Source: a virus
Reading direction: 5' to 3' (one strand)
Length of the DNA stretch: 64,000 nt
Virus genome (UHGV): UHGV-0117634
The notes below the pieces were generated by a model. It worked only from the letters and a program-made list of their open reading frames with translations, searched no databases and was not told the DNA's origin. Below, piece after piece: positions 3,412 to 40,812 of the stretch. Both the position numbers and the translations under genes were made by a program. How positions within the stretch are numbered: the stretch's first letter is position 1; each line of letters opens with the position of its first letter.

Positions 3412-3433
3412 AAAAAGGCTCCCGAAGGAGCCT
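3412..3433 (-). terminator. rho-independent terminator (minus strand GGCTCC-TTCG-GGAGCC then T-run)
   Basis: Plus strand AAAAAGGCTCCCGAAGGAGCCT; perfect stem, tetraloop, T-run on minus strand; follows 3445..3909. Confidence 0.6.
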
Positions 3434-3444
3434 CTATATTAACC

Positions 3445-3909
3445 TTAACCTAGAACTTTAGCAAGCACATTTGCAGCCATTGTTGAGGCTTTAGCAGCAG
3501 CGTTAACCCCAGATTTAATGGTGCTGTCCTTGATAGCTGATACCGTTGCAGCATCAGTAAACAGATAAGTGGTAGTCTTTTCACCACTTGTGAAGGAAAG
3601 CATAAGAGCAGTTTCCAGATTGAAGGAACGGTATGGTGCTCCCTGTTTTACAATCCCTGCTGCACCAAGTTCTGAAGCCATACCCATATCATAGATGGTC
3701 ATCAGATTTTCTTTGTGAGCAGTTGTAGAACCAACACCTTTAACGTGTTTAGAAACATTCAGCAGAGCACGATACTCACGAATCTCTCCGTCAGCTTTGA
3801 CGTTTACTGCTCGGAAGATTTTACCTTCAAAGTTGTCTTTGATGATACGACGAACAACTTCAGATTTGTTTCCGGTTGCATCGATAGCTACTGTTATAAT
3901 ATTTTGCAT
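3445..3909 (-). CDS. hypothetical protein (154 aa)
   Basis: ORF-track ORF with GAGAGAG-containing leader and its own terminator. Confidence 0.5.
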   Translation of the reverse strand: MQNIITVAIDATGNKSEVVRRIIKDNFEGKIFRAVNVKADGEIREYRALLNVSKHVKGVGSTTAHKENLMTIYDMGMASELGAAGIVKQGAPYRSFNLETALMLSFTSGEKTTTYLFTDAATVSAIKDSTIKSGVNAAAKASTMAANVLAKVLG

Positions 3910-3920
3910 GGTTTTCTCTC

Positions 3921-4616
3921 TCAGTTTTTAACTAACATTGTTTTAATGTGTGGAAGGATTCTTTCGACCTTTGCCACGTTCTTTACTGTATCTTCTATAA
4001 AGCATACTACATCATAGTAAGGTAGAATGCAAGACTGAAGCATACGAACTTTCAAACTTTCTGCACTAATCTCATTGTCACCAAATCCACGCATAAACAG
4101 TAAGAAATCACTGTCTACATTTTCATTCAGGAAGAGATGAGTGACCACTCTCTGTGATTCACCACGAGCAGTTAAGAATCCTATATCAGCATTTTGTGAT
4201 ATCCCACACAGGATGTTAAAAACATAAGTTGGTTTAGCTCTGCGAGAGTCCACCAAGTTAGTGTACTGTGAGTAAGTACCATCATCTAACAGAGTTGCAT
4301 TAAGTTTCTTATCAAAACTTGTAAGAACACCATCAATATCTGCTAAGACCATTTTACGTTTTTCTTCCAAGTTCTTTGCAACCAAGATAAGACTATTACG
4401 ACCCACATATACAGTCTTACCTGTTAGCAAATCTTGACAAGGAATCTGTGTCTTTGTTGAATGAAAGTCTTCAAAGCTACATGCAACACATCTTGCTGTA
4501 TCTGCAAAGTCAGCTTTAGCAACGTCTGACCAGCTTGCATAACTGATATCTAAATCAAGTGGTTTGATATCATAAGCATGACACAGAACCGTATCAAATT
4601 GTTTTGATTCGCTCAT
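3921..4616 (-). CDS. HAD-like phosphatase-domain protein (putative nucleotidase), N-terminal region unknown
   Basis: LADIDGVLT matches HAD motif I (DxDG[TV]); later GFGDNE resembles motif IV. Confidence 0.35.
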   Translation of the reverse strand: MSESKQFDTVLCHAYDIKPLDLDISYASWSDVAKADFADTARCVACSFEDFHSTKTQIPCQDLLTGKTVYVGRNSLILVAKNLEEKRKMVLADIDGVLTSFDKKLNATLLDDGTYSQYTNLVDSRRAKPTYVFNILCGISQNADIGFLTARGESQRVVTHLFLNENVDSDFLLFMRGFGDNEISAESLKVRMLQSCILPYYDVVCFIEDTVKNVAKVERILPHIKTMLVKN

Positions 4617-5142
4617 ATTTTACCTTTTTAATGTTTGTTGCAAACTCACATTGAGCAAGCAATTTCATGTTATTGTACACATCTTGAGAATATTGTCTAG
4701 CCTTTGGAATCTTATATTTGTAACCAGCATTATAAGAAGCTAGGACACGCTTCATAGAGTACTTTCCATCTGGGTTACCGTGAACCTTTGTCCAGAATAG
4801 CAACTCTTTATGAGCCTCTTTTGCTGAGTAATGGAAGTCACTTACCAACTTCTTCTTAGCAACCTTTGGAGATATTTTGTTACGCTTTACAACAGTCTTC
4901 AAGTGATTCTGGAAAACACCATAATCATGAGTCCTTTTATTTTCTAACATGACACCTAATTGTGACTCTTGTAAGGCTATAGCTGCTAAAGGGATTCCCC
5001 AACCTTTTCCCATCTGTCCTTCGCCATAGTTATATGCTTTTAACATATTTACTTTCTGACTGATTGTAAGTTCTGGACAGTCAGATGCTGTAGCTAAATG
5101 TGCTGTAAAGAATAAGCACAAACCTAAAACAAATTTCTTCAT
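4594..5142 (-). CDS. signal-peptide lytic transglycosylase (candidate secreted/SAR endolysin)
   Basis: Start moved to MKKFVLGLCLFF (AGGAG RBS); signal peptide; Slt-like motifs ALQESQLG, GVFQ, SYNAGY. Confidence 0.55.
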   Translation of the reverse strand: MKKFVLGLCLFFTAHLATASDCPELTISQKVNMLKAYNYGEGQMGKGWGIPLAAIALQESQLGVMLENKRTHDYGVFQNHLKTVVKRNKISPKVAKKKLVSDFHYSAKEAHKELLFWTKVHGNPDGKYSMKRVLASYNAGYKYKIPKARQYSQDVYNNMKLLAQCEFATNIKKVKYERIKTI

Positions 5143-5206
5143 TTGCACTCCTATTTTGTTAAACATGCAGACAATTATACATCATCCTGCACATTTTTCA
5201 AATAAA

Positions 5207-5229
5207 AAAGGCTGCCGAAGCAGCCCTTT
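5207..5229 (-). terminator. rho-independent terminator after rIIB
   Basis: Plus AAAAAAGGCTGCCGAAGCAGCCCTTT; stem GGCTGC/GCAGCC with CGAA loop, flanking A/T runs. Confidence 0.55.
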
Positions 5230-5242
5230 AGGAATTTACTTA

Positions 5243-6364
5243 TTATACTTCACGTTTACGCTGAGAAATCAGTTCACCAGCAGTTCCTACAACTACATGA
5301 AGTGCTTCTGAACCATCCCACTCTTTGATGACTTCACGGCGACTATTCACAATCGCTGCAACTTCATAACGTGAAGCTCGCATTTTCATATCGTTGTAGT
5401 CAGTTGGTACTGAAACAACATCACGAGGATGAACACGAACTTTCAGGATAGTGTCGCCAGAGAAGCTAGTTACATAGTCCCAAGCCCCAACATGCAGACC
5501 CTGAGAGCATGTTACATGACGGTTATTATCAACCATCCAACGTGGCATCTCAACAATGTTACCCAAATCGTTTGGAACTTTGCAGGTACGAGAGTCAAAC
5601 AGTTTACCACTACGAGTTGTGACTTTCTTCCAACCGATGATATAACCTTCTTCATCGATTTCAACATCAAGGTGTGACACAAAGCCCCAAAGTTGTTCTA
5701 CAGAGTCTTTTGATGGGTTTTCCATCAGTTTTTCGAAGAATGCAATCAGACGGGTAAAGCCTTCATCACCTTTCTTCATCATGTCCAGAATACGGTCTAC
5801 CAGAGTTGAACGCATTTGAACAGCACCGTAGTACAGGTTATCACCTTTAATGGTCACAGCACCCTGAGTAAAGTTCTCAATGGATTTGCGAATATTCATC
5901 AGTTCAAAGGCTTTCTTGTACTCACCTGATACAACAGCCATAACAATTTCAGTGTAGTTAGGGTGAGTTGATTCAACAATCTCTGACTCTGCACCGAAAG
6001 TCATGATAACCGAGTCACCAGTAATCATGTATTCAATCTGACTATTATTCTGCATTGCTTCGTGCAGAGCATTTACAGGTTCTGCTTTGACTGCTTCTTT
6101 AACAGCTTTTGCAACAGGTTTCTGAGTAGCTACCTTTTTAGTTGCTTTAGCTTTCTTAGCACCCTTTGCAATATCCTTCAGAGTCCTCGCAGGTTTTGCT
6201 TTGGTTTTCCCTGTCAGTAAAGTTGCTTCATGACGCTCTACAGCACGACCTACAGAACGAGTTGAAGTATTGTACTTCAGAGCAATTGCAGTTTTGGTAA
6301 GTTTACCTTCTTTAACCAGTGCGTAGATTTCTGCGTCGATTTGTGCTTTAGTCTTAGTAGTCAT
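5243..6364 (-). CDS. rIIB: rIIB-like protein
   Basis: C-terminal region (RSTLVDRILD..., CSQGLHVGAW, VRVHPRDVVSVPTDYNDMKMR) matches T4 RIIB as I recall it; lies immediately downstream of rIIA as in T4. Confidence 0.85.
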   Translation of the reverse strand: MTTKTKAQIDAEIYALVKEGKLTKTAIALKYNTSTRSVGRAVERHEATLLTGKTKAKPARTLKDIAKGAKKAKATKKVATQKPVAKAVKEAVKAEPVNALHEAMQNNSQIEYMITGDSVIMTFGAESEIVESTHPNYTEIVMAVVSGEYKKAFELMNIRKSIENFTQGAVTIKGDNLYYGAVQMRSTLVDRILDMMKKGDEGFTRLIAFFEKLMENPSKDSVEQLWGFVSHLDVEIDEEGYIIGWKKVTTRSGKLFDSRTCKVPNDLGNIVEMPRWMVDNNRHVTCSQGLHVGAWDYVTSFSGDTILKVRVHPRDVVSVPTDYNDMKMRASRYEVAAIVNSRREVIKEWDGSEALHVVVGTAGELISQRKREV

Positions 6365-6407
6365 TTTAATATCTCTCTTTGTTGTTTAAAGTTACTTAGT
6401 GGTTCGT

Positions 6408-6436
6408 ATTCTAAGGGGCTTTTCAGCCCCTGTCAA
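6408..6436 (-). promoter_or_regulatory. sigma70-like promoter for rIIB (TTGACA-N17-TAGAAT) with a GGGGCTGAAAAGCCCC hairpin in the spacer
   Basis: Minus strand TTGACA, 17-nt spacer made almost entirely of a perfect 6-bp-stem hairpin, then TAGAAT ~40 nt upstream of the rIIB ATG. Confidence 0.45.
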
Positions 6437-6443
6437 ACTATTT

Positions 6444-8816
6444 TTATTCCCAACAGTTGGTATCTTCTGGCAGACCTCTAACATCAAACCCTAAGAATCT
6501 ACCAACTTCAACAGGTGACACTTTATTCCAATCCAGATTAGAAAGCAAGAAGTTTTCTTTACGGCGTTTTTCAAAGTAATCTTTGAACTTGCTTTCAAGA
6601 CGCTTCTTAGCATTGTCCAGAATCTTTCTTGGCTTACAAGAGCTTCTCATATTCCTGCGAATGGTGTCAAGAGTACTGTAGATTTCTTTGTAAGCAATTG
6701 GTGCAGCAGTGTATGCCAAGCGACCAAACATTGCTTCTACAGCGTCTTCGTTCCCTTCTAACAGGATTGTTGAGTCAAAGTCTTTGTTATATACATGACC
6801 CCTTGACTTCTTCTTACCAGCAAAGTTGAAGTTACGAGCAACAACATTACAATCTGTGATATCATGCTTATCAGTCATGTACTGATATGTCAAGTAACGA
6901 TGATACTCAATCCAGTGAGTGTTATCAATAAAATCTTTCATCACCTGTGCATTGACTTCTGTCCAATCTTCAGGAATCTTCTTCCAGTTTGCTTTACGGA
7001 AGACATAAACTGTTTGTCCAGTTAATTCTGTCATCAACGTTGCAGCACGTTCTGGTGAGCATGAGAAGATACCACCAAGAACTTCATCACTCTGTGCTTT
7101 GATATACAGTTGTGGTTCTTCAATCTCATCAAAGTTTTCCTTAACTTCCGTATAACGGATTATGCCGGAGTTTGGGCATATAAATGCTTTGTACAGCTTC
7201 ACCACTCCACGTACAATGGTACGTTTCTCATAGTGGTGCTCTTTAGATGACATTGTATGCACACTTAACAGAGTCTTGTCAAGCATATGCAGAGCTACAA
7301 ATTCATCAAATTGCTGCTGACTGCTGAACAAGAAAGCAATACCATTGTAGCGACGGAAGTTGGAATCTTCCTGTTCACGGTCACGGCAAGCTCCACGGAT
7401 AATCTGATTTTTACCAGTCGTCTTTTCAGACCCGTTCTTGTTTCGACGGTCATTGATAAGGAACAAATAGTTGCTCAACTTATCTTTACTCATTGCACCA
7501 AAGATACTAAACATGGCAGCATCTTGTGAATATGTTGCTGAAGTTGCTCGAATACGATTCTCCAGACTGCTGTACTTGTAATATGCTACAGGTTCATACA
7601 GATTACCAATATTAGGAACTGGATTACCGTCTTTGTCAAGCCTTAAGTTACCTGCATCATCTTTTAAGAATGATGGAGAACCATCTGCTTCAGTTAACTG
7701 ACCACGACGAATACCCAACAGCTTTTGTTCAAGCTTTTTCAAGTTCTGACCTTGCCACTCCAGAGAATCTTGGACGTGATTAAAGATTTCACGAGCCTCT
7801 TTCCTCATGGTATCATAAGCCTGAGCAGCATCAATCAGCGTTGGCTTATTAGCAATCTCTTTAACCACATCTTCAACGATTGTCTTAGTGATTTTCTTCA
7901 CGGCTTCAACAATCTTTGTCTTAGTGGTCTCATTCATCTGTAATGCTTCACGAGATGCAGCAATAGCCACTGAACCAATTGGCATGTAGATATTAACAAG
8001 GTCTACAGCACTACGGAAGAACTGAGGCAGAATACTTGTAAACTCTGAACCAAGCAACTCACCCATTTCAACAGGATAAGCAATATTACCCATGATTACG
8101 TTGAAATGGACACTATTACTATTTGAGCGCCAGTTCTCTTTGTACTTCATTGCATCATAGACACCATCTTCACGAGAAATGGAAGTCATTGCTTCAAGAA
8201 TGTCATAGTACTCAACATTACACTCTGGCTTAACTTTAAAGTACGAGTATACATTGCTCGCTTCTTCATGAAACTTGTTAATACGGTTATCAGATACCGC
8301 TACTCGAACAGCTAAACCATTTGGCTCTGTAGTTGGGTTAGTAGTCAACTTAGTGACTTGAGGGATACCATTCTCAAGATATACAGAGTACTTGTTAACA
8401 ACACCATCAACATAGCTTGATACAGTAAATGATTGAGCAATCGCAAACGGTGACTTTGAACCGATACCCATAGCACCGATGTAGTCATTTGAATCGTTCT
8501 TTGTAGATTCTCCATAGGTCATATAAAGCTTCATGACTTTTTCATGAGTCAGACCTGTACCAAAATCACGAACTTCAAAGAAAGGCTCAAAACGAGTTGG
8601 CAAGTGAACCAAGAAAGGCTTATCAACATTACCAGAATCAATGTGAGCATCTACTGCGTTACAAGATAACTCACGAATAACAGCACGTTCTTTGTATGTG
8701 TAAACACCTGAGCTTAGAAGACTGAACATTTCAGGTGTCATCTTAATCTGAGCCTGAGAGGTTTCCAGTGTACTTGAGCTTTTAATTACCGTTGCGTGGT
8801 CATTTACCATGCGCAT
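6444..8816 (-). CDS. rIIA: rIIA-like protein (GHKL/Bergerat-fold ATPase N-terminus)
   Basis: N-terminal YKERAVIRELSCNAVDAH...RDFGTGL...DYIGAMGIGSKSPF aligns with T4 RIIA ATPase-fold motifs from memory; 790 aa. Confidence 0.9.
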   Translation of the reverse strand: MRMVNDHATVIKSSSTLETSQAQIKMTPEMFSLLSSGVYTYKERAVIRELSCNAVDAHIDSGNVDKPFLVHLPTRFEPFFEVRDFGTGLTHEKVMKLYMTYGESTKNDSNDYIGAMGIGSKSPFAIAQSFTVSSYVDGVVNKYSVYLENGIPQVTKLTTNPTTEPNGLAVRVAVSDNRINKFHEEASNVYSYFKVKPECNVEYYDILEAMTSISREDGVYDAMKYKENWRSNSNSVHFNVIMGNIAYPVEMGELLGSEFTSILPQFFRSAVDLVNIYMPIGSVAIAASREALQMNETTKTKIVEAVKKITKTIVEDVVKEIANKPTLIDAAQAYDTMRKEAREIFNHVQDSLEWQGQNLKKLEQKLLGIRRGQLTEADGSPSFLKDDAGNLRLDKDGNPVPNIGNLYEPVAYYKYSSLENRIRATSATYSQDAAMFSIFGAMSKDKLSNYLFLINDRRNKNGSEKTTGKNQIIRGACRDREQEDSNFRRYNGIAFLFSSQQQFDEFVALHMLDKTLLSVHTMSSKEHHYEKRTIVRGVVKLYKAFICPNSGIIRYTEVKENFDEIEEPQLYIKAQSDEVLGGIFSCSPERAATLMTELTGQTVYVFRKANWKKIPEDWTEVNAQVMKDFIDNTHWIEYHRYLTYQYMTDKHDITDCNVVARNFNFAGKKKSRGHVYNKDFDSTILLEGNEDAVEAMFGRLAYTAAPIAYKEIYSTLDTIRRNMRSSCKPRKILDNAKKRLESKFKDYFEKRRKENFLLSNLDWNKVSPVEVGRFLGFDVRGLPEDTNCWE

Positions 8817-8849
8817 AAGAATATCTCCTTAGTTGTCGATGTGGCAAAC

Positions 8850-8877: not shown

Positions 8878-8878
8878 G

Positions 8879-9058: not shown

Positions 9059-9375
9059 ACATTTTCTCCTACAGTTCTAAATAGAACAAAACTTCTGTCA
9101 TGAACAATACTCGAAGATACTGCAAAACTATTCTCAAGTATATTTTTATTTGGATTGTAGAATCCTTCTTGGAACAAATCAAGTGCCTCTTGATGATTTT
9201 GTGGCAGACCTTTGATGTAAACCTTCAAAGTGACCGTTGTATAAATCTCAGAAGCTAACTCTGACTGTGCTGCTTGAAACAGTTCGTTGATAAACTTGTG
9301 ACCATCTTCAGGACGCTGAATGTTTTCCCAACGTTCTTCAATGATTACATTGACATTCATCTGTTTAATTTTCAT
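9040..9375 (-). CDS. hypothetical protein (111 aa)
   Basis: ORF-track ORF downstream of the NAMPT-family gene. Confidence 0.4.
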   Translation of the reverse strand: MKIKQMNVNVIIEERWENIQRPEDGHKFINELFQAAQSELASEIYTTVTLKVYIKGLPQNHQEALDLFQEGFYNPNKNILENSFAVSSSIVHDRSFVLFRTVGENVCKVIG

Positions 9376-9599
9376 AGTCTGTTAATTCCTTTGCAAGTTT
9401 TACGAAACTCTCTGCGAAGCTTTCTAATCTGACGTTTAGTAGGTTTTGTAGGGAATTTGTAATCATCCACAAAAACCTGCATATCATCTCTGTAGTCTTC
9501 TGCAAACCATAACTGCCAAGATGCTACACAATATCCACCAAAGAATCCAGTACTATCTGTATAAAATAAATCAGTGTTAAATCTCATAACATTCTCCAC
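9372..9599 (-). CDS. hypothetical protein (75 aa)
   Basis: ORF-track ORF; GGAG RBS; overlaps next gene start. Confidence 0.4.
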   Translation of the reverse strand: MENVMRFNTDLFYTDSTGFFGGYCVASWQLWFAEDYRDDMQVFVDDYKFPTKPTKRQIRKLRREFRKTCKGINRL

Positions 9600-9604
9600 A
9601 AATT

Positions 9605-9627
9605 AAAAAGGCTCCCGTAGGAGCCTC
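9605..9627 (-). terminator. rho-independent terminator after NAMPT-family gene
   Basis: Plus AAAAAGGCTCCCGTAGGAGCC; stem GGCTCC/GGAGCC, tetraloop, T-run on minus strand. Confidence 0.6.
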
Positions 9628-9640
9628 TTATCATACTATT

Positions 9641-11458
9641 TTACAGTTGCTTGTCAATAACTTTTCGTACATCACGAAGGTTAACGTAACCATATGGTTG
9701 TGAGTCACAGAAGACAAGCTTCAAAGCACACTGAGGGTTGTCAATGACACCTTCAAACTCTGCAAATCCTAAGCCATCTACAGCTTCCAGCTTATCACCA
9801 TCCCACATAGGAATGACACCACCAAAAGCAGATTTCTTAAGACCACTATCTGTTTTAGGGTCTTTAGCCAGCATGATTTCTTTACCATCCATCTGTGCAA
9901 GAGTTGCTTTAACAGCAAATGCAAAGGTATCGCGAGTCAAGTACTGATAAGTGTATGAACCTACACCAAACACTACGTTAGAACTTGCAAAACCCTTATC
10001 AGCAAGACGTGACAGGATATCATTAGCTCTTTCCAGAGTGATAGAATCACCGTAGATTAATCCAATGTGCTCATCCAGTACTTTGTACCCTTTGGAGTTA
10101 ACAGTGCCACCAAAGATGTTATACAGCGTGTGGATAGCCCCATCAATCTCTGCTGTCAGCATACGCTTCACAGTAAACTGTCCAGTTTTCTGAGCGGTAA
10201 TCAGGTTGATTGTATCAGCAGATTCAAAATCTTCCTTATCAACAACCATCTCATAACCTTCAGAGATTAGCCAAGCAGAGAACCCAAAGCCAATATCAGA
10301 CATTTCACAATTCAAGATTGTGTCATGCAGATGTGTATTGTTCGGTGCAAGCTCTTTCATGTGCTTGTAGAACATTGACTTAGCAGTTTCCCACTCAATG
10401 GCTTTGTAACCAGTAACAATGTGAACAGGGTCTCCAGAGTCTGGACGGATTACCAACTTACCATCACGATTCAGAATCACATTACGTAGCTCTGGTAAAA
10501 TCTGTGTAACAGTTCTCCAGAAGTTGTAAGTATCTGATACAACACTTGCAATACCAGTTGGGTAGACTTCTGTCAGAAGACGTTGGAAAGTTTCTACCTC
10601 ACCACGCCAACGCATTGCATCTAACAAGTTGTCAGACTGTAGCAGATGCCAATCACTTACTTCTTTTGCACAACTATTCCATGAGATGTTTGCACACATC
10701 ACAGAGTGTTCAGTTGCTGGTACAGAGTTCCCGATATCACTTACAGTCATAAACTGACCATATGCACGTTTAGCTGTGTATACAGCAGGGAAGCTGTCAG
10801 TACCTTTAAAACTTGTCAGGTGACCTACTGCGTTAAACGCATCATCTGTGAATCCAGACATACCACGCATTGCAAAGTCATGACACTGCCAAGGAAGATG
10901 GAAGTCGTTATCACAGGTCAAATCTGACCACTTCTTACAAATACGTTTGTAATGTAGTGCAATAGTTGCAATTGTACAAGCTTTCCAGATTTCAGCAGAG
11001 AAAGCATCTTCGAGATAACCAGCTACCCAATGGAAGCCCTCTACAGTGTTTTTGAATATAATCATCGGGACACGCATAGGGACAATTGTACCTTCCTCTA
11101 CAGAGTAGACTTCAACAGGCAGATAACCTAAGTCATGAAGTTCTTCCCAATGTTGGCGACCAATAGCATCTGCACCAAGAACACCATTCATGATTTCCAA
11201 GATTTCGTCAATGGCTTCTTTCTTATCGCGTTCAAAGAACGTTGCATTCCAGTGGTCTACCAGATAGTCTTTTACAAAACGCTGAATACCAAATGCTACA
11301 ACACCATCAATTTCTAATGGAGAGTTAAACCATTTGTCTCCACGAGGTGTTAAGTTCAGCATAAGATACTGAGTAGCATCTGGATACTGGTAGATATGAC
11401 CAGCTTTGTAAGCATCTGCGTTAAGTCCTGCTGGTACTGCATAGATTGATTTAGTCAT
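9641..11458 (-). CDS. nadV: nicotinamide phosphoribosyltransferase-family protein (NAMPT/NadV-like; candidate Namat of an NAD+ reconstitution pathway)
   Basis: Clear NAMPT motifs: DAYKAGHIYQYP, FAMRGMSGF...SFKGTDS, SVPATEHS, VVSDTYNFW, IRPDSGDP, IYGDS, FGVGSY...LTRD. Confidence 0.9.
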   Translation of the reverse strand: MTKSIYAVPAGLNADAYKAGHIYQYPDATQYLMLNLTPRGDKWFNSPLEIDGVVAFGIQRFVKDYLVDHWNATFFERDKKEAIDEILEIMNGVLGADAIGRQHWEELHDLGYLPVEVYSVEEGTIVPMRVPMIIFKNTVEGFHWVAGYLEDAFSAEIWKACTIATIALHYKRICKKWSDLTCDNDFHLPWQCHDFAMRGMSGFTDDAFNAVGHLTSFKGTDSFPAVYTAKRAYGQFMTVSDIGNSVPATEHSVMCANISWNSCAKEVSDWHLLQSDNLLDAMRWRGEVETFQRLLTEVYPTGIASVVSDTYNFWRTVTQILPELRNVILNRDGKLVIRPDSGDPVHIVTGYKAIEWETAKSMFYKHMKELAPNNTHLHDTILNCEMSDIGFGFSAWLISEGYEMVVDKEDFESADTINLITAQKTGQFTVKRMLTAEIDGAIHTLYNIFGGTVNSKGYKVLDEHIGLIYGDSITLERANDILSRLADKGFASSNVVFGVGSYTYQYLTRDTFAFAVKATLAQMDGKEIMLAKDPKTDSGLKKSAFGGVIPMWDGDKLEAVDGLGFAEFEGVIDNPQCALKLVFCDSQPYGYVNLRDVRKVIDKQL

Positions 11459-11478: not shown

Positions 11479-11494
11479 GGGGCTTTTCAGCCCC
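11479..11494 (-). promoter_or_regulatory. second copy of GGGGCTTTTCAGCCCC hairpin (intergenic, between PRPP-synthetase-family and NAMPT-family genes)
   Basis: Identical 16-mer to the one in the rIIB promoter spacer; here no good -35/-10 flank it. Confidence 0.4.
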
Positions 11495-12402: not shown

Positions 12403-12421
12403 AAGTTACGTTTGTAAATTA

Positions 12422-12871
12422 TTATTCCCAAATAATTTTCTTTCTTTTTAATTTAATGATGTTCTTTTTACAATACTCAACTGCCTCATCCATTGTATCA
12501 AACATCATCTCACCAATAAAGTACTTAACATTTGGGTTTTGCTCTTGTATTATTTGGATTTCTGTAGTTTTTACTTGGTCTTTTACACCAGTAACCAGTC
12601 TTGCTAGTCGTGGTTCATTTTCCATAAATGGTTTGCTTAACTGGTTGATATAAAGAACTCCACCATTTTTGCTACCATGCTTGACAGTCACGAGAACCCC
12701 AACTTTACGCAACGCTGATAAGTAATACCTTGAATTAGCTATCGGCATTTTCTTAAGATAATCACAATTACTTCTTAGAGCTTTCACCGCTTCATTGGAA
12801 TCAAATTCCTTATCAGTCCCGAACTTTTCGTGTAGTATCTCAACAAGCGTTACATAAAATGAGCTAATCAT
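12422..12871 (-). CDS. hypothetical protein, tandem paralog B (149 aa)
   Basis: Same length as and about 45% identical to 12898..13347 (shared EIL..KFGT..FDSNEA...YL.ALR..GVL.TV and C-terminal YFI...MF.T..EAVE.CKK.IIK.KR.KIIWE). Confidence 0.6.
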   Translation of the reverse strand: MISSFYVTLVEILHEKFGTDKEFDSNEAVKALRSNCDYLKKMPIANSRYYLSALRKVGVLVTVKHGSKNGGVLYINQLSKPFMENEPRLARLVTGVKDQVKTTEIQIIQEQNPNVKYFIGEMMFDTMDEAVEYCKKNIIKLKRKKIIWE

Positions 12872-12897
12872 AACTTTGTCTCTTTAGCTAGTGTAAA

Positions 12898-13347
12898 TTA
12901 TTCCCAAATAATCTTTGCACGTTTAATCTTAATGATGTGTTTTTTGCAATGCTCAACAGCCTCTTCTAAGGTATTAAACATCGCACTTTCAATAAAGTAC
13001 CTTACGTCAGGGTCTGTGTCAACAATTTTGTTCTCATCTTTATTTTTAGGTTCTTCATGTGATTCATCCAATAATGGTGATAGCTGGATGTGCTTTTCCA
13101 TGAAGGATTTATTTAACTGGTTAATGCTCAGTCTACCTTTACTTTTTATCTGGCCTACAGTCATTAGTACACCAGTTTGTCGTAATGCTGTCAAGTAACC
13201 ACGAGCATTATTAATTGATTGACCTCTAATGTATAGGCTTTTCTTTCGAAGTACATCAATAGCCTCATTAGAATCAAATGTCCCCTCTGTTCCAAACTCT
13301 TTATACAAAATTTCTATTACATGTTTTTGTAAATTACAAAAAATCAT
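12898..13347 (-). CDS. hypothetical protein, tandem paralog A (149 aa)
   Basis: Paralog of 12422..12871; conserved GTAACTTTTGACTGAGAGAAA leader upstream. Confidence 0.6.
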   Translation of the reverse strand: MIFCNLQKHVIEILYKEFGTEGTFDSNEAIDVLRKKSLYIRGQSINNARGYLTALRQTGVLMTVGQIKSKGRLSINQLNKSFMEKHIQLSPLLDESHEEPKNKDENKIVDTDPDVRYFIESAMFNTLEEAVEHCKKHIIKIKRAKIIWE

Positions 13348-14164: not shown

Positions 14165-14186
14165 AGGGAACCTTTTACAGTTCCCT
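14165..14186 (-). terminator. rho-independent terminator
   Basis: Plus AAAAAGGGAACCTTTTACAGTTCCCT; stem AGGGAAC/GTTCCCT, T-run on minus strand. Confidence 0.5.
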
Positions 14187-14198
14187 AATCATATACGT

Positions 14199-14510
14199 TT
14201 ACTGAGCTATTTTCAAGACTTTTAAGAAACCTCCCTCACCAATTGCATCATAAACGTTTTCAGTTGGCTTGATAAGGTTGTTCAAGCATACAATTTTCTT
14301 ACGCTTCTTGTCATAAGTAAGCTTCAGTTGTTTCAACTCTTTGTCATCTTCAGGGTGCTCGTTGTACATCTTCACAGCTTCTTTAAAGCTAATGTAGCCA
14401 CCACCTAAAGTAAGGAAACCTGTACCACAATAGTGGGAGTTGTGTTTATCAGCCATAAACTGGCACAGGATAGAAATCTGAATTTTACGAGTGTTATAAA
14501 TCTTTTCCAT
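14199..14510 (-). CDS. hypothetical protein (103 aa)
   Basis: ORF-track ORF; AAGGATTATTAAAATG leader. Confidence 0.45.
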   Translation of the reverse strand: MEKIYNTRKIQISILCQFMADKHNSHYCGTGFLTLGGGYISFKEAVKMYNEHPEDDKELKQLKLTYDKKRKKIVCLNNLIKPTENVYDAIGEGGFLKVLKIAQ

Positions 14511-16267: not shown

Positions 16268-16336
16268 ATTTTAATACTCTGCTCCAATAAAAAGGTGATG
16301 CAAGCCTATCAAGACCTACACCACCTTGTCAACTAC

Positions 16337-18496: not shown

Positions 18497-18518
18497 AAAG
18501 GTCTCCGAAGAGACCCTT
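18497..18518 (-). terminator. rho-independent terminator upstream of nrdD
   Basis: Plus AAAAAAGGTCTCCGAAGAGACCCTT; stem GGTCTC/GAGACC, CGAA loop. Confidence 0.55.
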
Positions 18519-18527
18519 ATATTAATT

Positions 18528-18728
18528 CTACTTAGAAAACTTTTCAATAAGCTTTTTAAGCTTTCCACTCAAATCATGTTTGATATCTAATATCTCAAAG
18601 ATAACCCATACTAGCATAGCTCCAAAGAGAGCACCTTGTTTTAAATCAGTAAACAGGCTAGTAACCATGAATGCCAGAGCAATCATCGGAGCATCTTCAA
18701 CAAAACCATCCCATAAACGTTTAAGCAT
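18528..18728 (-). CDS. small membrane protein (66 aa, two predicted TM helices)
   Basis: Hydrophobic segments MIALAFMVTSLF and ALFGAMLVWVIF; GAGGTG RBS. Confidence 0.45.
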   Translation of the reverse strand: MLKRLWDGFVEDAPMIALAFMVTSLFTDLKQGALFGAMLVWVIFEILDIKHDLSGKLKKLIEKFSK

Positions 18729-20308: not shown

Positions 20309-20363
20309 AGACTCTCCAAAGTTAATTTTAGAGGGTCTTTTACGACCCTCATAGTTATTGAAA

Positions 20364-22610: not shown

Positions 22611-22634
22611 TACAGGTGAAAAAGGGTCTCCGAA
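22611..22634 (-). terminator. rho-independent terminator upstream of nrdA
   Basis: Plus AAAAGGGTCTCCGAAGAGACCCCTT; stem GGGTCTC/GAGACCC, CGAA loop, T-run on minus. Confidence 0.6.
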
Positions 22635-22649
22635 GAGACCCCTTAGAGA

Positions 22650-22985
22650 TTAAATGCTAAAAATCTTTTTACTTTCCCAGAGTTCAATGAACTTCTGTGA
22701 CACTTTTGTTAGTGAACCTTTAGACATTGTATTCATATACCAGTAACGTTTACCTTCATCGAATGCCATGTCAAGTTTCTCACTAATATCTTCTTCAAGT
22801 CTTGCAATTGAAAAGTTACCACGTACTTTGCAGACAACTCGTCCAAATTTGATATCGCTGCGGCCTTTGCAATCTTCAGTGTACATTACAAAGTCACCAT
22901 GATGTAATGTCTCACCAAACTTATCATTGCCTAGTTCTTCACCAGCTTTGATTTCTTCTTTAGTTAACTTTTTAATTTTAGACAT
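22650..22985 (-). CDS. hypothetical protein (111 aa)
   Basis: ORF-track ORF. Confidence 0.4.
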   Translation of the reverse strand: MSKIKKLTKEEIKAGEELGNDKFGETLHHGDFVMYTEDCKGRSDIKFGRVVCKVRGNFSIARLEEDISEKLDMAFDEGKRYWYMNTMSKGSLTKVSQKFIELWESKKIFSI

Positions 22986-29368: not shown

Positions 29369-29371
29369 CTT

Positions 29372-34348: not shown

Positions 34349-34409
34349 TAGTGTTGACAAGGTGCTCATGGAAGAGTACCTTATACTATATATTATATAG
34401 GAGACTTGT

Positions 34410-35276: not shown

Positions 35277-35277
35277 G

Positions 35278-36581: not shown

Positions 36582-36589
36582 AGGCCAGT

Positions 36590-36739: not shown

Positions 36740-36744
36740 AGTTG

Positions 36745-36772
36745 TTGACATGAAGAATCTGACGGGTATACT
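36745..36772 (+). promoter_or_regulatory. sigma70-like promoter (TTGACA-N16-TATACT)
   Basis: Near-consensus hexamers ~50 nt upstream of 36823 ORF; inverted repeat TCTGACGGG...CCCGTCAGA brackets the -10 and leader. Confidence 0.55.
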
Positions 36773-36822
36773 GCCTATATAGAAAATTATATATTAACCC
36801 GTCAGAAATCTCGGAGGTAGTT

Positions 36823-37203
36823 ATGAAAAAGTTACTTGTTGGTGTCATTGCTCTTGGTATGAGTTTTAGTGCAGTGGCTATGAAGATGCCTGAAGCAAAC
36901 TTTAATGGTGTTGCTTTAGAGTCTTGTAAGATTGTACAGAAAATTGCATCAAATGCTGGAGAGTTAACTAAACCGTTATCTGCTCCAACTGTTCAAGAAA
37001 TGACTGATAAGATGGTTGACTACAATTACCATTTTATGGGTGATTACTATGACAGATTAGCAGATGAGATGGTCACCCAGAATGTCGATGTTCTTGACAG
37101 CAAAGGTATCGAAACTGTAGAAGATGTGAAAGATAATTTTATGCGTGAGTCTTTCAAAGGTGTCCAATATTTTATTGAAAATCGTAACTGCATAGGTTTA
37201 TAA
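36823..37203 (+). CDS. secreted/periplasmic protein (signal peptide), function unknown
   Basis: MKKLLVGVIALGMSFSAVA signal peptide; GGAGG RBS. Confidence 0.5.
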   Translation: MKKLLVGVIALGMSFSAVAMKMPEANFNGVALESCKIVQKIASNAGELTKPLSAPTVQEMTDKMVDYNYHFMGDYYDRLADEMVTQNVDVLDSKGIETVEDVKDNFMRESFKGVQYFIENRNCIGL

Positions 37204-37205
37204 TC

Positions 37206-37409
37206 ATGAAGAAGAACATCTGTAGAACAGACTATGGTGAAGTGGTCGATGATGACGGAGTAGTTATTTACAGAGTTTGGGCTAATGATTTTTCAACCCT
37301 TGTAGAGTCTTTAGATAACTACATCAACGGGACTCGTGAAAACGTCAGAGCAACTAATCTTGATTCGTTAATAGACACTTCTCGAAAGCGGAGAAAGAAA
37401 GATGAATGA
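37206..37409 (+). CDS. hypothetical protein (67 aa)
   Basis: ORF-track ORF. Confidence 0.4.
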   Translation: MKKNICRTDYGEVVDDDGVVIYRVWANDFSTLVESLDNYINGTRENVRATNLDSLIDTSRKRRKKDE

Positions 37410-37701
37410 AGTCTTCGACCCTTATGCACCTCAAGATTCTTGGGAGGCTGATAGAGAGGCTGAAATGGAGAGTTATGTCTGTCCAATGGATATAGAAGAG
37501 ATGAAAGACTTTGTATCTTTCAGATTCTCTAAAGAGATTGAGAAGCTAAAACTTTCTCAGGCTCAAGTAGCAACTGTTTGTGAAATCTCACAGAGTCGTG
37601 TATCAAATATCATTAACGACCCTCAAAAGATTTCTTTAGAGTACATGCTTAATGCTTGTACAAAACTTGGTGTAAATTTTAACTTAAGGCTGGCAGATTA
37701 A
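37402..37701 (+). CDS. helix-turn-helix (XRE/Cro-like) DNA-binding protein with acidic N-terminus
   Basis: LSQAQVATVCEISQSRVSNI resembles XRE-family HTH. Confidence 0.45.
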   Translation: MNEVFDPYAPQDSWEADREAEMESYVCPMDIEEMKDFVSFRFSKEIEKLKLSQAQVATVCEISQSRVSNIINDPQKISLEYMLNACTKLGVNFNLRLAD

Positions 37702-37702
37702 T

Positions 37703-38062
37703 ATGAAACGTGAAAATGCAATCTTTAACGATAACTTTGCAATTGGCTTCTATGGTAAACCAACTCCAGCAGAGAAGCTTTATGGTAATGCAATTCTGGA
37801 GACCTTGAAAGAGGTTTACACAACTGGTGGTATGAAGCATACTGAAGCAAACCGTGTAAGAGGTTATATGGCAATTGGCTCTGCAATCTCTAACATCAAA
37901 CTTGAAACCACCAGTGCCAAAAAGGTACGAGACCACTTCATCAAAGAGTTGTCAGAGAATCTAGATGGTGTTGATGTTAAGGCTGTCTGGTTAGATGTTG
38001 ATGGTCACAACTACACAACTTTTGTGTTTAAAAATGAGGATATCAAATGTCTCTTCCCTTAA
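37703..38062 (+). CDS. hypothetical protein (119 aa)
   Basis: ORF-track ORF. Confidence 0.4.
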   Translation: MKRENAIFNDNFAIGFYGKPTPAEKLYGNAILETLKEVYTTGGMKHTEANRVRGYMAIGSAISNIKLETTSAKKVRDHFIKELSENLDGVDVKAVWLDVDGHNYTTFVFKNEDIKCLFP

Positions 38063-38550
38063 AACTCGATTTATACTTTGGGTACAGTGTATTGCAAGGC
38101 AGCATACTATCACTACCAAAGTCAGATTATCGTTGTGATTTAGGTTCTGTGAAACGTGCATCACACTTTAACAACAACATCTTAGGCTTGCAGACACTTC
38201 ACAGGTGGCTTGAGGAAGATGGACGGTTGAATGAGTATCTTCACCAACTCGAACTAGCCAAAGAAGAAGGTCATATGGGCTATGAAATGCTTCCACGTCT
38301 TTACAAACCTGTAAGCCCAAATGAGATTCGTTGGAATGAGCAAGCTGTTGAGAGCTATAATAAATTTAATATAACTATTTGCTCCAGAGCTTGGAAGGAG
38401 TATATGAAACTCCGTGAAATCATCATACAGACTATTGGAAAGCGTGTAGCAAAAGGTCTTGCTTATGATGAAAAGGTTGACTGGAATACACAAAAGTGTA
38501 TAAAATTCTTCAAGTACGATAATGACAAGGATACTTTTGTAGAGGTTTAA
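38047..38550 (+). CDS. hypothetical protein (167 aa)
   Basis: ORF-track ORF. Confidence 0.4.
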   Translation: MSLPLKLDLYFGYSVLQGSILSLPKSDYRCDLGSVKRASHFNNNILGLQTLHRWLEEDGRLNEYLHQLELAKEEGHMGYEMLPRLYKPVSPNEIRWNEQAVESYNKFNITICSRAWKEYMKLREIIIQTIGKRVAKGLAYDEKVDWNTQKCIKFFKYDNDKDTFVEV

Positions 38551-38551
38551 C

Positions 38552-39067
38552 ATGAAAATTGGAATTACCCTTTGCCAGCCTGAAGCAGAGTTCTTGAAAT
38601 CAATGTTGTCTGAGCATATGAAAGCTACAAATCATACTGAGAAGACATTCTTGATTGATACAAACTATGATGCAGGAACTATTGAGTTCATCGATGAAGA
38701 CACTGCTGACTCTCTGTGTGTTCTTCCTGCTCACTTATTTACTCCAGAGCTACGGGATAGTCGTTCTATTGAAGTTAATCTGGAGCCAAGTATTGAACTG
38801 TACTCAGATACACAGTATCCAAGAAGTTTTAAAGCATTGCTAAACATCTTCATAGCTGATATTGTAGAGATTGTTAAGCAGACTGAAGGTGGTCATGTAG
38901 TAACTGCTGAGTATGAACAAGGAACTATCAAACTGACAGGTGACTTTGGTTCTATGAGTTTCTTAGACTTTGTGCCAAAACACTTTGAAGATTTTCTGTC
39001 AAGTGAAGTTGATGACCTTGATTTCATACTAAAATTTGAACGCACTTTTAAGGTAAACAAAAAATGA
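38552..39067 (+). CDS. acidic hypothetical protein (171 aa)
   Basis: Strong Asp/Glu excess; no motif recognised. Confidence 0.4.
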   Translation: MKIGITLCQPEAEFLKSMLSEHMKATNHTEKTFLIDTNYDAGTIEFIDEDTADSLCVLPAHLFTPELRDSRSIEVNLEPSIELYSDTQYPRSFKALLNIFIADIVEIVKQTEGGHVVTAEYEQGTIKLTGDFGSMSFLDFVPKHFEDFLSSEVDDLDFILKFERTFKVNKK

Positions 39068-39336
39068 AAATCTTAAGCGGAGTATCACAGTGTTACATGA
39101 ATAATGGTGAGCCAGTTAAATGCTGCCATTGTGGAGGTGAGAACTTCCAAGGTGAAGTTTCAGAGATTGTCTCTGGCAATATCGCTGAAGAGTACACCCG
39201 TTGCTGTGGATGTGGAAAGATTTTATCTTTTTGGGCTTATGGAAGTTATGAACCACAGCCTCACCTTATTTACCATCCGAACAGGATTGTGAAGCGTGTT
39301 CTAAACTGGTTCATTATCAAAGGATTTACAAAATGA
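39064..39336 (+). CDS. small Cys-rich protein (zinc-binding?)
   Basis: CCHCGG and CCGCGK cysteine clusters. Confidence 0.4.
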   Translation: MKILSGVSQCYMNNGEPVKCCHCGGENFQGEVSEIVSGNIAEEYTRCCGCGKILSFWAYGSYEPQPHLIYHPNRIVKRVLNWFIIKGFTK

Positions 39337-39878
39337 TTAAGTTAATTTTTGCAAGTGGTATTAACGGGGAGTTTGGCACAGCTACTGGAATGCCTTGGCC
39401 TCGTAATAAACAAGATATGGCAGAGTTTAAGAAGCAGACTGTTAACCAGTTAGTCTTGATGGGTAGCGAAACTTGGAAGACTCTTGGGAGCAAACCTTTG
39501 CCAAACCGTGAGAACCTTGTCTTAACAAACTCTCTTGACTTTTATGGTCTGGACTTTAAAGATGACTCTCATTGCAAAGCAAGAGTTAAGTCTGAAGCTT
39601 TTGGGGCTTTCCTAAAGTATATTGATAGTTCTATTGAGGAAGATGTTTTAGTAATCGGTGGAGCCAATATCTTAATCTCAGCTTTGCCGTATGCTGACGT
39701 AGTTTTCCACAGTGTTATTAAGGAAGTTACTGAAGAGGCTACTGTCAAGCTACCTTATGAGGGTTTCTTCCAGTGCTTGTATGACACAGAGTTATTTGCT
39801 AAAGTACAGTCCAAACCCTCAGAAGATAAGTCTGTGGTGTTTGATACCTATGTTCCACAAGTAAGAGGACGTTTCTAA
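39333..39878 (+). CDS. folA: dihydrofolate reductase
   Basis: MIKLIFASG...TGMPWPR...LVLMG DHFR N-terminal motifs; directly upstream of thyA. Confidence 0.8.
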   Translation: MIKLIFASGINGEFGTATGMPWPRNKQDMAEFKKQTVNQLVLMGSETWKTLGSKPLPNRENLVLTNSLDFYGLDFKDDSHCKARVKSEAFGAFLKYIDSSIEEDVLVIGGANILISALPYADVVFHSVIKEVTEEATVKLPYEGFFQCLYDTELFAKVQSKPSEDKSVVFDTYVPQVRGRF

Positions 39879-39879
39879 T

Positions 39880-40779
39880 ATGTCACAAGCAGATGTAAGC
39901 TACAAAGCTATTTTAAACCATGTTTTATCAGTTGGTGAGTTGCGTAAAACCCGAACTGGCTCAGTGATTTCGACCTTTGCTCCACCTGAGTTCCGTTTTG
40001 ATATGCGTAGTGGATTCCCATTAATCACCTCAAAACAAACATTTATGCGTCAAGTCCTCGGTGAAGCATTATGGTTTATGAACGGTGAAAACCAACTAGG
40101 CCATTTGCGTTACAGAACTTGGGGGGAGAACGACGGAGAGCGTTGGACTATCTGGACAGATGATTTTAAACGTTGGTTGAAAACAACCTATGCTACAGAG
40201 AATGATTGGCTGGAGGACGCTGGAGGAAGAATCTATGGGGTCCAATGGAGAGCCTACGAAGGTCATGGTGGCGTTGTTGTAGACCAGTTGAGTAATCTTG
40301 TAGAGAAGATGAGAAAGTCCCCTACAGACCGTTACATGCTCGTTAACGCATGGAATGCAGCAGATATCTCAAGTAACTCTATGGCATTAGCACCTTGTCA
40401 TGTACTTTTTCAGATTTATATCTCGAATACTAATGAGGTGGATTTAAAATGGTATCAGCGTTCTTGTGATACGTTCTTAGGGTTACCGTTTAACATCGCT
40501 TCCTATGCCTTTATCTTGGAAGTGTTGTGTAAACTGACGGGATATACACCGAGATATCTGATAGGTACTTATGGTGATACTCAAATCTACCAGAACCATA
40601 TGTCGCAGGTTTTTCAACTTCTTGGTAATGAAGAGTTTCCAGCACCTAAGTTTGAAATTCATCAAGATTTGAAGTCTCTTGAAGACTTGAGACATATGAC
40701 AGCAGATGACTTTCTAGGTGGGTTGAAAGGGTATAAACATGCTGGTAAGATTGAAGCGCCTTTATCAGTAGGTAAGTAG
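39880..40779 (+). CDS. thyA: thymidylate synthase
   Basis: Catalytic-Cys context LAPCHVLFQ, 299 aa. Confidence 0.9.
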   Translation: MSQADVSYKAILNHVLSVGELRKTRTGSVISTFAPPEFRFDMRSGFPLITSKQTFMRQVLGEALWFMNGENQLGHLRYRTWGENDGERWTIWTDDFKRWLKTTYATENDWLEDAGGRIYGVQWRAYEGHGGVVVDQLSNLVEKMRKSPTDRYMLVNAWNAADISSNSMALAPCHVLFQIYISNTNEVDLKWYQRSCDTFLGLPFNIASYAFILEVLCKLTGYTPRYLIGTYGDTQIYQNHMSQVFQLLGNEEFPAPKFEIHQDLKSLEDLRHMTADDFLGGLKGYKHAGKIEAPLSVGK

Positions 40780-40785
40780 AAACAA

Positions 40786-40812
40786 AAAAGGCTCCCGTAA
40801 AAAGGAGCCTTA
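40786..40812. terminator. bidirectional rho-independent terminator between converging operons
   Basis: AAAAAAGGCTCCCGTAAAAAGGAGCCTT flanked by A-run and T-run; lies between thyA (+) and 40816..41190 (-). Confidence 0.65.

Follow-up and report, generated by a model that had tools for sequence, protein, structure and literature searches.

The window analysed in this study, a stretch of 64,000 nucleotides from the virus genome UHGV-0117634, raises the question of what a set of similar GC-rich hairpins does between the genes of one phage. The window comes from an Ounavirinae (Mooglevirus-like) myovirus, which has about 81% DNA identity to Felixounavirus and belongs to a different genus. An earlier note had listed at least six intergenic hairpins, each with a T-run on the leftward strand, as what looked like one reused terminator module. 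All six were found at the listed places with offsets of 1-3 nt. Each lay between open reading frames with a stop codon 5-13 nt before it, and each carried U5-6 on the minus strand, which is the coding strand. The best explanation is very probably that all six serve a Felix O1-like phage as intrinsic (rho-independent) terminators or attenuators; a promoter layer on some of them is less certain.

The first hairpin, H1 (3414..3435, minus strand), has a 9-bp stem with a U-run at 3416-3412 and folds at -14.8 kcal/mol (z -3.5). Its minus-strand RNA from 3435 to 3414 is AGAGGCUCC-UUCG-GGAGCCUUU, and it lies between a hypothetical gene (3445..3909) and an i-spanin gene (3045..3392; names from the HP1 annotation). 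H2 (5206..5229, minus strand; RNA from 5229 to 5206, AAAGGGCUGC-UUCG-GCAGCCUUUU) has a 10-bp stem, a U-run at 5209-5204 and a folding energy of -15.1 kcal/mol, and is located after rIIB (5243..6364) and before a putative lysin gene. H3 (9606..9629, minus strand; RNA from 9629 to 9606, AAGAGGCUCC-UACG-GGAGCCUUUU; 10-bp stem; U-run 9609-9605; -16.6 kcal/mol, z -4.7) follows the nicotinamide phosphoribosyltransferase gene (9641..11458) and precedes a small DUF7279 gene. H4 (18497..18518, minus strand; RNA from 18518 to 18497, AAGGGUCUC-UUCG-GAGACCUUU; 9-bp stem; U-run 18499-18494; -12.3 kcal/mol, z -4.5) is found between a small membrane-protein gene (18528..18728) and nrdD. H5 (22621..22644, minus strand; RNA from 22644 to 22621, AAGGGGUCUC-UUCG-GAGACCCUUU; 10-bp stem; U-run 22623-22619; -15.6 kcal/mol) is located after the gene at 22650..22985 and before nrdA.

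H6 (40788..40811) appears to be a bidirectional terminator. Two convergent genes flank it, that of thymidylate synthase on the plus strand (end at 40779) and one on the minus strand (end at 40816). It shares the GGCUCC/GGAGCC stem of the family and has an A-tract and a T-tract on each side. The minus-strand RNA from 40811 to 40788 is AAGGCUCC(U)-UUUUAC-(G)GGAGCCUU, with a U-run at 40789-40784. The folding energy was -14.3 kcal/mol on the minus strand and -13.5 kcal/mol on the plus strand, where the U-run side, UUAUAGUUAUUUCUUUU, is weaker. Because its loop has 6-8 nt, H6 does not belong to the tetraloop family in which it had been placed.

Each hairpin shows the anatomy of an intrinsic terminator: a GC-rich stem with a U-run directly after it, an A-tract upstream and a stop codon just before. 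The stems have 9-10 bp with 4-5 GC pairs, the loops of H1-H5 have 4 nt, and all are on the coding strand. The CGAA and CGTA loops described earlier are present, but were read on the non-transcribed strand; in the RNA they are UUCG in H1, H2, H4 and H5 and UACG in H3. Folding energies of the six ranged from -12.3 to -16.6 kcal/mol, with z = -2.7 to -4.7. UNCG hairpins (stem >=6, >=4 GC pairs) were then counted against 100 first-order Markov simulations. All five were on the minus strand, the coding one, and the plus strand had none; per simulation the mean count was 0.05 and the highest 2. In an independent terminator scan, H1-H4 and H6 ranked at or near the list tops, and H5 was missed solely because part of its U-run was counted within the stem. 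Rfam covariance models gave no matches at the gathering score in the whole window.

In Felix O1, EcSzw-2, TP1 and ESh20 the corresponding gene junctions also carried hairpins, whose stems were different but compensated; H3 is identical across five genomes. Double compensatory changes were seen in 6 of 10 stem pairs, and the covariation score was reached by 0 of 500 shuffles. The closing C-G pair was invariant in all 15 distinct family members from six genomes, and the loop was likewise kept while the stems covaried. The stems had been called near-identical, which goes too far: they fall into three types (GGCUCC, GGCUGC and GGUCUC), interconverted by compensatory changes. When the six copies were aligned together with flanks of 55-60 nt, similarity was confined to the stem-loop and U-run of about 30 nt, and the flanks were unrelated. 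The idea of one reused module therefore holds only loosely, and since the stems differ by covariation, what is constrained is the structure rather than a repeated sequence. The unrelated flanks, the constant loop orientation and the covarying stems argue against a mobile short repeat (REP/MITE-like).

In E. coli, an intrinsic terminator has a 6-10 bp GC stem and a U-run; its loop is often 4 nt long, and UUCG is over-represented among such loops. d'Aubenton Carafa et al. in 1990 reportedly described such terminators with tetraloops. The phage hairpins do not differ substantially and look like copies of this host signal. CUUCGG hairpins are said to have been described by Tuerk et al. in 1988 in phage T4 and other phages. 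They are found mainly in phage intergenic regions (PMC4371310, PMC8948821). The T4 and window hairpins have in common the C(UUCG)G loop, the obligatory C-G closing pair and short GC stems, but the phage families differ and the T4 copies have mixed roles. Since every window copy has a U-run, all of them look like terminators, unlike those of T4.

The closest comparison is Felix O1, for which Table 2 of Whichard et al. 2010 (Viruses 2:710, PMC3185647) lists predicted rho-independent terminators. We found matches to t2, t5, t35, t111, t116, t79/t80, t124, t64 and t104, with core sequences that were the same or compensated (ggctccttcgggagcc, ggctgcttcggcggcc, ggtctcttcggagacc, ggctcctttttacgggagcc). 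The junctions also agree: H2 corresponds to t2 after rIIB, H1 to t5, H5 to t111 before nrdA, H4 to t116 before nrdD, H6 to t79/t80 after thymidylate synthase, and K1, a hairpin not among the noted six, to t124. At the H5 junction, t111 has a stem (GGAGCCUC/GAGGCUCU) that differs from that of H5 but is compensated. For H3, the counterpart lies at Felix O1 85516-85539 and is absent from Table 2. The earlier terminator interpretation is thus supported by anatomy, strand-specific loops, junction conservation with compensatory stems and the Felix O1 table. It is correct but not new, since the Felix O1 paper lists hairpins with the same core and phage intergenic CUUCGG hairpins were already known in 1988. 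New here is only the fusion of several hairpins to predicted host-type promoters; PMC3185647 mentions neither tetraloops nor fused promoters.

Demonstrated here are the sequence and structure of the hairpins, their excess over chance, their strand preference, their conserved positions and the covariation of their stems; we infer that transcripts end at the hairpins, which would function as terminators. A leftward-transcribing host RNA polymerase would copy the GC-rich inverted repeat, capped in five of six cases by a C(UUCG)G or C(UACG)G tetraloop. As this is the most stable small RNA loop known, the hairpin should fold quickly in the exit channel, and the downstream U-run would release the transcript. 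H6 would act both ways between its convergent genes. The formed hairpins may additionally protect the 3' end against exonucleases, and mRNA stabilisation or processing is plausible as a secondary role. No phage RNA polymerase has been reported in Felix O1 (PMC3185647); in a phage transcribed by the host enzyme, host-type signals are expected.

We found that a conserved sigma70-like promoter ends at the stem base of H3, H4 and K1, and weakly of H1. The H3 promoter (9630..9657, minus strand; TTGACA-16-TATGAT, 11/12) has a -10 that ends exactly at the hairpin base, with a predicted +1 at 9624-9622 within the 5' arm; it is kept in Felix O1, EcSzw-2, TP1 and ESh20 with a variable spacer. The -10 of the H4 promoter (18519..18547, minus strand; TTGAAA-17-TAATAT, 9/12) also ends at the base, with a predicted +1 at 18513-18511, and the EcSzw-2 counterpart is TTGAGA-17-TAATAT. 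K1 (14165..14186, minus strand; GUAAAA loop, U6 tail, -12.3 kcal/mol) is preceded by a promoter at 14188..14216 (minus strand; TTGAAA-17-TATGAT, 10/12) that ends 1 nt before it; the hexamers are kept in relatives (TATGAT, TACTAT), the spacer is variable, and the predicted start is 14182-14180. At H1 the match is weak (3436..3464, minus strand; TTGCTA-17-TAATAT, 8/12). Its -10 ends at the hairpin base and keeps T1, A2 and T6 in relatives (TATGAT, TAAGAT, TATTAT), with a predicted start at about 3430-3428.

Two further arrangements were seen. A promoter (5174..5201, minus strand; TTGAAA-16-TATAAT, 11/12, with TG upstream of the -10) begins 4 nt past H2 in the classical terminator-then-promoter order, and TGTATAAT is kept in EcSzw-2 and Felix O1. 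Between rIIA and rIIB, the spacer of another promoter (6408..6436, minus strand; TTGACA-17-TAGAAT, 11/12) is itself a GNRA hairpin, G1 (6414-6431, GGGGCU-GAAA-AGCCCC, -13.5 kcal/mol), also kept in EcSzw-2 and Felix O1. No convincing promoter match was found at H5 or H6. In this AT-rich genome promoter-like matches are common in general, with 73 against 55 expected in 20 kb.

Of 130 T-tailed hairpins from six genomes, 20 had a -10 that ended 0-3 nt upstream of the stem, with about 0.2 expected per offset. The promoter-abutting layout occurred at at least six independent loci, including pairs in which it was kept while the hairpin sequence was wholly different. When each hairpin's own upstream sequence was shuffled 2000 times, the window had 3 observed versus 0.21 (3/2000), Felix O1 4 versus 0.34 (1/2000) and EcSzw-2 6 versus 0.24 (0/2000); the same test gave no association in the distant relative LPML1. 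In the -10 hexamers T1, A2 and T6 were conserved, and spacers were variable. Within the window the promoter layer covers 3-4 of about 12 coding-strand hairpins.

Most hairpins are followed by the next start codon only 18-22 nt downstream in same-direction gene strings. Termination must therefore be incomplete unless the fused promoters work, and H5, with no recognisable promoter, must be leaky in any case. How transcription passes the Felix O1 terminators was stated as unknown in PMC3185647, and a literature search found no transcript 3'- or 5'-end data for Felixounavirus-like phages. We tentatively propose, at somewhat below an even chance, that some terminators of Felix O1-like phages (Felixounavirus, Mooglevirus, Suspvirus) act as one-way valves with the +1 within the 5' arm. 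Transcripts born at the H3, H4 and K1 promoters (and weakly H1) would start inside the 5' arm, lack the full hairpin and escape termination, and read-in transcripts would be terminated because they fold the complete hairpin with its C(UNCG)G loop. A start 6-8 nt past the -10 leaves a predicted residual hairpin of 0 to -5.4 kcal/mol, compared with -12 to -18 kcal/mol for read-in RNA. Together with H2, with its promoter just after, and G1, within a promoter spacer, the fused copies may form compact promoter/terminator cassettes, which could account for transcription passing the terminators. If true, the valve would answer the question posed in the Felix O1 paper; if functional, promoter fusion would give a simple testable account of how neighbouring genes in a tightly packed phage genome are insulated in less than 60 nt of intergenic space.

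It is also possible, if doubtful, that these are plain leaky terminators or attenuators without working promoters, the hexamers being non-functional and downstream genes being served by partial read-through. The sharp positional peak at offsets 0-3, significant against own-upstream shuffles in three genomes, argues against this, as do the non-coding -10 hexamers that keep T1/A2/T6 while neighbouring bases vary and the layout that survives hairpin replacement. It is consistent with the frequency of promoter-like matches in an AT-rich genome, with H5 and H6 having none and H1 only 8/12, and with the position of the -35 hexamers in coding sequence, where conservation could be protein-driven.

A mainly post-transcriptional role, with exonuclease barriers or processing landmarks giving differential stability in polycistronic mRNA and no stop of the polymerase, is unlikely. 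In its favour, hairpins with UNCG or GNRA loops have very high stability, T4 gene 32 offers a link between CUUCGG hairpins and mRNA stability (PMC8948821), and two GAAA-loop sister hairpins, G1 and G2, look like pure stabilisers because they have no U-run. However, all six hairpins carry U5-6 and an upstream A-tract, features that are termination-specific and needless for a stability element, and H6 has tracts on both sides, as a bidirectional terminator should.

The usual -10-to-start distance is 6-8 nt. It seems quite improbable that the promoter-fused copies instead start at the first G of the GC core, so that a 5'-end hairpin shields the mRNA from decay that depends on the 5' end (RNase E/RppH), in the manner of the ompA-type 5' stem-loop. 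That G lies 4-5 nt past the -10 in H1, H3 and H4, under the usual distance. A start 4-5 nt past the -10 would retain most of the hairpin (-6 to -13 kcal/mol), in these copies -6.2 to -12.9 kcal/mol with 0 unpaired 5' nucleotides, but with a U-run after it, a hairpin at the 5' end would be at risk of terminating its own transcript. In K1 and at the Felix O1 t29 / EcSzw-2 locus, the GC core begins 1-3 nt past the -10, which places the start well within the arm.

Finally, DNA-level elements (mobile repeat copies, protein-binding palindromes or recombination sites, not RNA structures) are very improbable: one core does recur several times, T4-type cassettes have been proposed as recombination sites, H6 is inverted between relatives and a hairpin (H3, X1, X3, 34359) lies at one edge of four variable segments, but the asymmetric loops always follow the coding strand, stems covary, similarity ends about 30 nt out in unrelated flanks, and, as about one in five gene junctions carries a hairpin, the edge coincidence is about chance level for junction-bounded indels, with no excess of indel boundaries found at hairpins.

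The putative promoter/terminator cassettes resemble the promoter-early stem-loop cassettes (PeSLs) of T4-type phages (Arbiol et al. 2010, PMC2839356; Comeau et al. 2014, PMC4122927), in which a sigma70-like promoter and a terminator stem-loop likewise occur together in the gap from a stop codon to the following Shine-Dalgarno sequence. The PeSL subclasses have counterparts here: stem-loop between -35 and -10 (G1), upstream of -35 (H2), and after -10 before the start (H1, H3, H4, K1). A PeSL-type promoter test found promoter matches for H2, H3, H4, K1 and G1 at the scores given above and weakly for H1, and none for H5 and H6. PeSL copies are alike over about 100 bp and have polyG/polyC stems, whereas the window copies are alike over only about 30 nt and have GGCUCC/UNCG-type stems. 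The window cassettes lie among conserved nucleotide-metabolism genes, and PeSLs in ORFan-rich hyperplastic regions. The phage subfamily also differs from that of the PeSL carriers, and neither PMC2839356 nor PMC4122927 mentions Felix O1-like phages. If the valve is true, PeSL-like cassettes would not be limited to T4-type phages but would also occur in a myovirus subfamily unrelated to them, where the copies lack the long stretches of repeat homology to which PeSL recombination is attributed.

As terminators, the hairpins are of value mostly for annotation, as marks of the borders of transcription units in the early region (nucleotide metabolism and replication); they are also the sort of compact, strong part that synthetic biology uses. 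The window also has about ten further GC hairpins on the coding strand; their loops are different (GAAA, GUAAAA and others), and they belong to the same functional class.

Six intergenic hairpins, H1 to H6, had been described in an earlier note as near-identical terminators with CGAA or CGTA loops. All six were found where that note had placed them. The loop description holds for five of them, but in the RNA these loops are UUCG or UACG, and H6 has a 6-8-nt loop instead. Because the surrounding genes lie on the minus strand, the RNA of H1-H5 is the reverse complement of the sequence originally read, and the identity of the motif was missed because the non-transcribed strand had been used. H1 (3435..3414), H2 (5229..5206), H3 (9629..9606), H4 (18518..18497) and H5 (22644..22621), all on the minus strand, are hairpins with a UNCG loop closed by C-G. 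Their stems are 9-10 bp long, with a U-run of 5-6 directly 3' and an A-tract 5'. H6 (40788-40811, both strands) has a GGCUCC/GGAGCC stem. Placed where two genes converge and flanked by A/T tracts to the left and right, it is therefore a bidirectional terminator. For most hairpins, the start codon of the next gene follows after just 18-22 nt, within strings of same-direction genes.

A motif count across the window, which had been proposed as a check, gave five UNCG hairpins (stem of at least 6, at least 4 GC pairs), all of them on the coding strand. The mean expected from 100 composition-matched first-order Markov simulations was 0.05 and the maximum was 2. Another proposed check, RNA folding, gave predicted energies of -12.3 to -16.6 kcal/mol (z -2.7 to -4.7). 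H1-H4 and H6 ranked at or near the top of an independent consensus terminator scan; H5 was overlooked only because its U-run was partly assigned to the stem. A search of the whole window against Rfam at gathering thresholds gave no match. UUCG tetraloops are said to have been found over-represented in E. coli terminators by d'Aubenton Carafa et al. in 1990. The motif count, the folding energies and the terminator scan support H1-H5 as C(UNCG)G-tetraloop intrinsic terminators.

The same cores are tabulated as predicted rho-independent terminators in the Felix O1 genome paper (PMC3185647), so that the terminator interpretation was right and the finding as first stated is not new. In that table, t2 (ggctgcttcggcggcc) matches H2 in position, t5 (ggctccttcgggagcc, shared with t35) matches H1, t111 (gagcctcttcggaggctc) matches H5, t116 (ggtctcttcggagacc) matches H4, and t79/t80 (ggctcctttttacgggagcc) matches H6. 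According to the passages on Tuerk et al. 1988 in PMC4371310 and PMC8948821, T4 mRNA is where CUUCGG hairpins were first found, and the regions between phage genes often contain them. The terminator motif itself is textbook. The Felix O1 record also carries the exact H3 cassette at 85516-85539, TTGACA-16-TATGAT followed by AAGAGGCUCC-UACG-GGAGCCUUUU; this copy is absent from the published terminator table.

In a similarity search, a 9-kb piece of the window matched Ounavirinae myoviruses: Salmonella phage S.Kent 1-2-1 at 98% identity, Citrobacter phage HP1 (Mooglevirus) at 97% and phiSUSP1 at 94.5%. In a second search, Felixounavirus members matched the window at ~81%. ORFs run leftward over 1-31.4 kb and rightward over 31.6-40.8 kb; from 40.8 kb on, the direction is leftward once more. 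Neighbouring genes, named from the HP1 annotation, include those for a spanin, rIIA/rIIB, nicotinamide phosphoribosyltransferase, nrdD and nrdA. A segment of ~930 nt (12410-13343) is missing from every relative compared, even from HP1 with its 97% identity. Two 149-aa ORFs lie there in tandem (12422..12871 and 12898..13347); they share 48% identity and have no Pfam match over the curated cut-off.

For comparison with the window we used the full genome sequences of Felix O1, EcSzw-2 and LPML1, along with a 46-kb stretch each from typing phage 1 (TP1) and ESh20. The relatives carry hairpins at the same gene junctions, some with a different, compensated stem. At the junction before nrdA, the stem is GGGGUCUC/GAGACCCU in the window and EcSzw-2 and GGAGCCUC/GAGGCUCU in Felix O1. 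Orthologues were located by flank anchoring, which did not recover most loci of the distant LPML1, nor H3, because the gene downstream of H3 is replaced in relatives; its counterparts were taken from the hairpin census. When 15 different C(UNCG)G hairpins were aligned, the loop-closing C-G was invariant and 6 of 10 stem pairs had changes on both sides (27 cells). The covariation score of 0.56 was reached by 0 of 500 shuffles and fell to 0.10-0.20 in slid registers, with pairing of the inner six pairs partly by construction since the members were picked as hairpins; this selection does not affect the orthologous replacements, which were located by their neighbouring genes. The conserved feature of these hairpins is structure, not sequence. 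When the six copies were aligned with their flanks, similarity was limited to ~30 nt and the flanks failed to align, which rules out copies of a longer mobile repeat.

Individual junctions differ among the phages. The DUF7279 gene (71 aa, 9372-9587, minus strand) directly downstream of H3 has no nucleotide-level match at the H3 locus of ESh20, EcSzw-2, TP1 or Felix O1; the start sequences in these four differ, and the variable segment begins immediately past H3. H6 is inverted among relatives: on the same strand, the window and Felix O1 read TTTTTACG, and EcSzw-2 and TP1 read CGTAAAAA. Such a flip of the whole hairpin could arise by recombination within an inverted repeat. After nrdB (20331-20350), the hairpin position is kept and the module is swapped: GAGGGUC-GUAAAA-GACCCUC in the window and Felix O1, GGGGCU-GCAA-AGCCCC in EcSzw-2 and GGGGUCU-UUCG-AGACCCC in LPML1.

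A promoter scan placed sigma70-like promoters on the minus strand against several hairpins. TTGACA-16-TATGAT (9657..9630) and TTGAAA-17-TAATAT (18547..18519) end exactly at the stem bases of H3 and H4, respectively. TTGAAA-17-TATGAT (14216..14188) ends 1 nt ahead of K1, a further terminator hairpin (14165..14186), and TTGAAA-16-TATAAT begins 4 nt after H2. A weak match, TTGCTA-17-TAATAT, also on the minus strand and ending at the base of H1, was spotted by eye. Across six genomes, the -10 ended at offset 0 from the stem in 13 of 130 T-tailed hairpins and at offsets 0-3 in 20 of 130 (promoters matching at least 9/12), over a background of 0.0011-0.0022 per position; a second cluster lay at -23 to -25. 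The excess was evaluated by shuffling each hairpin's own 45-nt upstream sequence 2000 times. The window had 3 (0.21 expected; reached in 3/2000 shuffles), Felix O1 had 4 (0.34; 1/2000) and EcSzw-2 had 6 (0.24; 0/2000). LPML1 showed no excess, with 1 observed, 0.32 expected and 559/2000 shuffles reaching that number. The predicted fusions represent at least six independent loci, at one of which the hairpins of Felix O1 and EcSzw-2 are unrelated in sequence but share the TTGACx-17-TATGAT-stem layout. In non-coding -10 hexamers, T1, A2 and T6 are retained, and the middle bases and spacers vary.

The Felix O1 authors left open whether transcription gets past the terminators by read-through or from secondary promoters (PMC3185647). 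Literature searches gave nothing relevant on a promoter overlapping the terminator, or on 3'-end or TSS mapping for Felixounavirus. In folding calculations, a start 6-8 nt past the -10 left a residual hairpin of 0 to -5.4 kcal/mol, and read-in RNA gave -12 to -18 kcal/mol. From this we infer that the fused promoter-terminators might act as a one-way valve: read-in transcripts would form the full hairpin and terminate, and locally initiated transcripts, without the 5' arm, would continue. Promoter-terminator fusion in Ounavirinae is a real possibility, somewhat short of probable, and would be a modestly interesting, testable addition to the known terminators.

Promoter-early stem-loops (PeSLs) of T4-type phages are composite cassettes of a sigma70 promoter and a stem-loop terminator, with both activities demonstrated in reporters. 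The position of the stem-loop defines the subclasses, among them stem-loops in the -35/-10 spacer, ahead of the -35, and past the -10 directly in front of the start site (PMC2839356, PMC4122927). The promoter/stem-loop layout of the window cassettes matches, but one PeSL hallmark, the ~100-bp homology among copies, is absent from the window. As to a second hallmark, an excess of stem-loops at indel boundaries, hairpins coincided with synteny breakpoints four times, about the number given by junction-bounded indels, and these coincidences thus lend no support to PeSL-type recombination. The window arrangement, which by analogy appears to work like a PeSL, is therefore not classed as one.

Other hairpins in the window were also associated with promoter-like elements or shared loops. 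Between rIIA and rIIB, hairpin G1 (GGGGCU-GAAA-AGCCCC) forms exactly the 17-nt spacer of TTGACA-17-TAGAAT (6436..6408, minus strand; 11/12 to sigma70 in the scan), a layout kept in EcSzw-2 and Felix O1. G1 and G2 (11479-11494, minus strand) are GNRA-loop hairpins of the same sequence without a U-run; the G2 loop is GCAA in EcSzw-2. Hairpin X1 (16327..16292, minus strand) and one at 34359-34382 (plus strand) both start with a TTGAC-AAGGTG motif, in which a perfect -35 hexamer overlaps the 5' base of the stem and is kept in relatives. They were discounted as promoters, as the candidate -10s, TAGGCT and TACCTT, are poor. Four terminator-like hairpins that differ in all else share a GUAAAA loop, at 14165-14186, 20331-20350 and 53785-53814 (all minus strand) and at 40788-40811 (plus strand). 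This loop is not strictly kept, being UGUAAA or UUAAAA in Felix O1.
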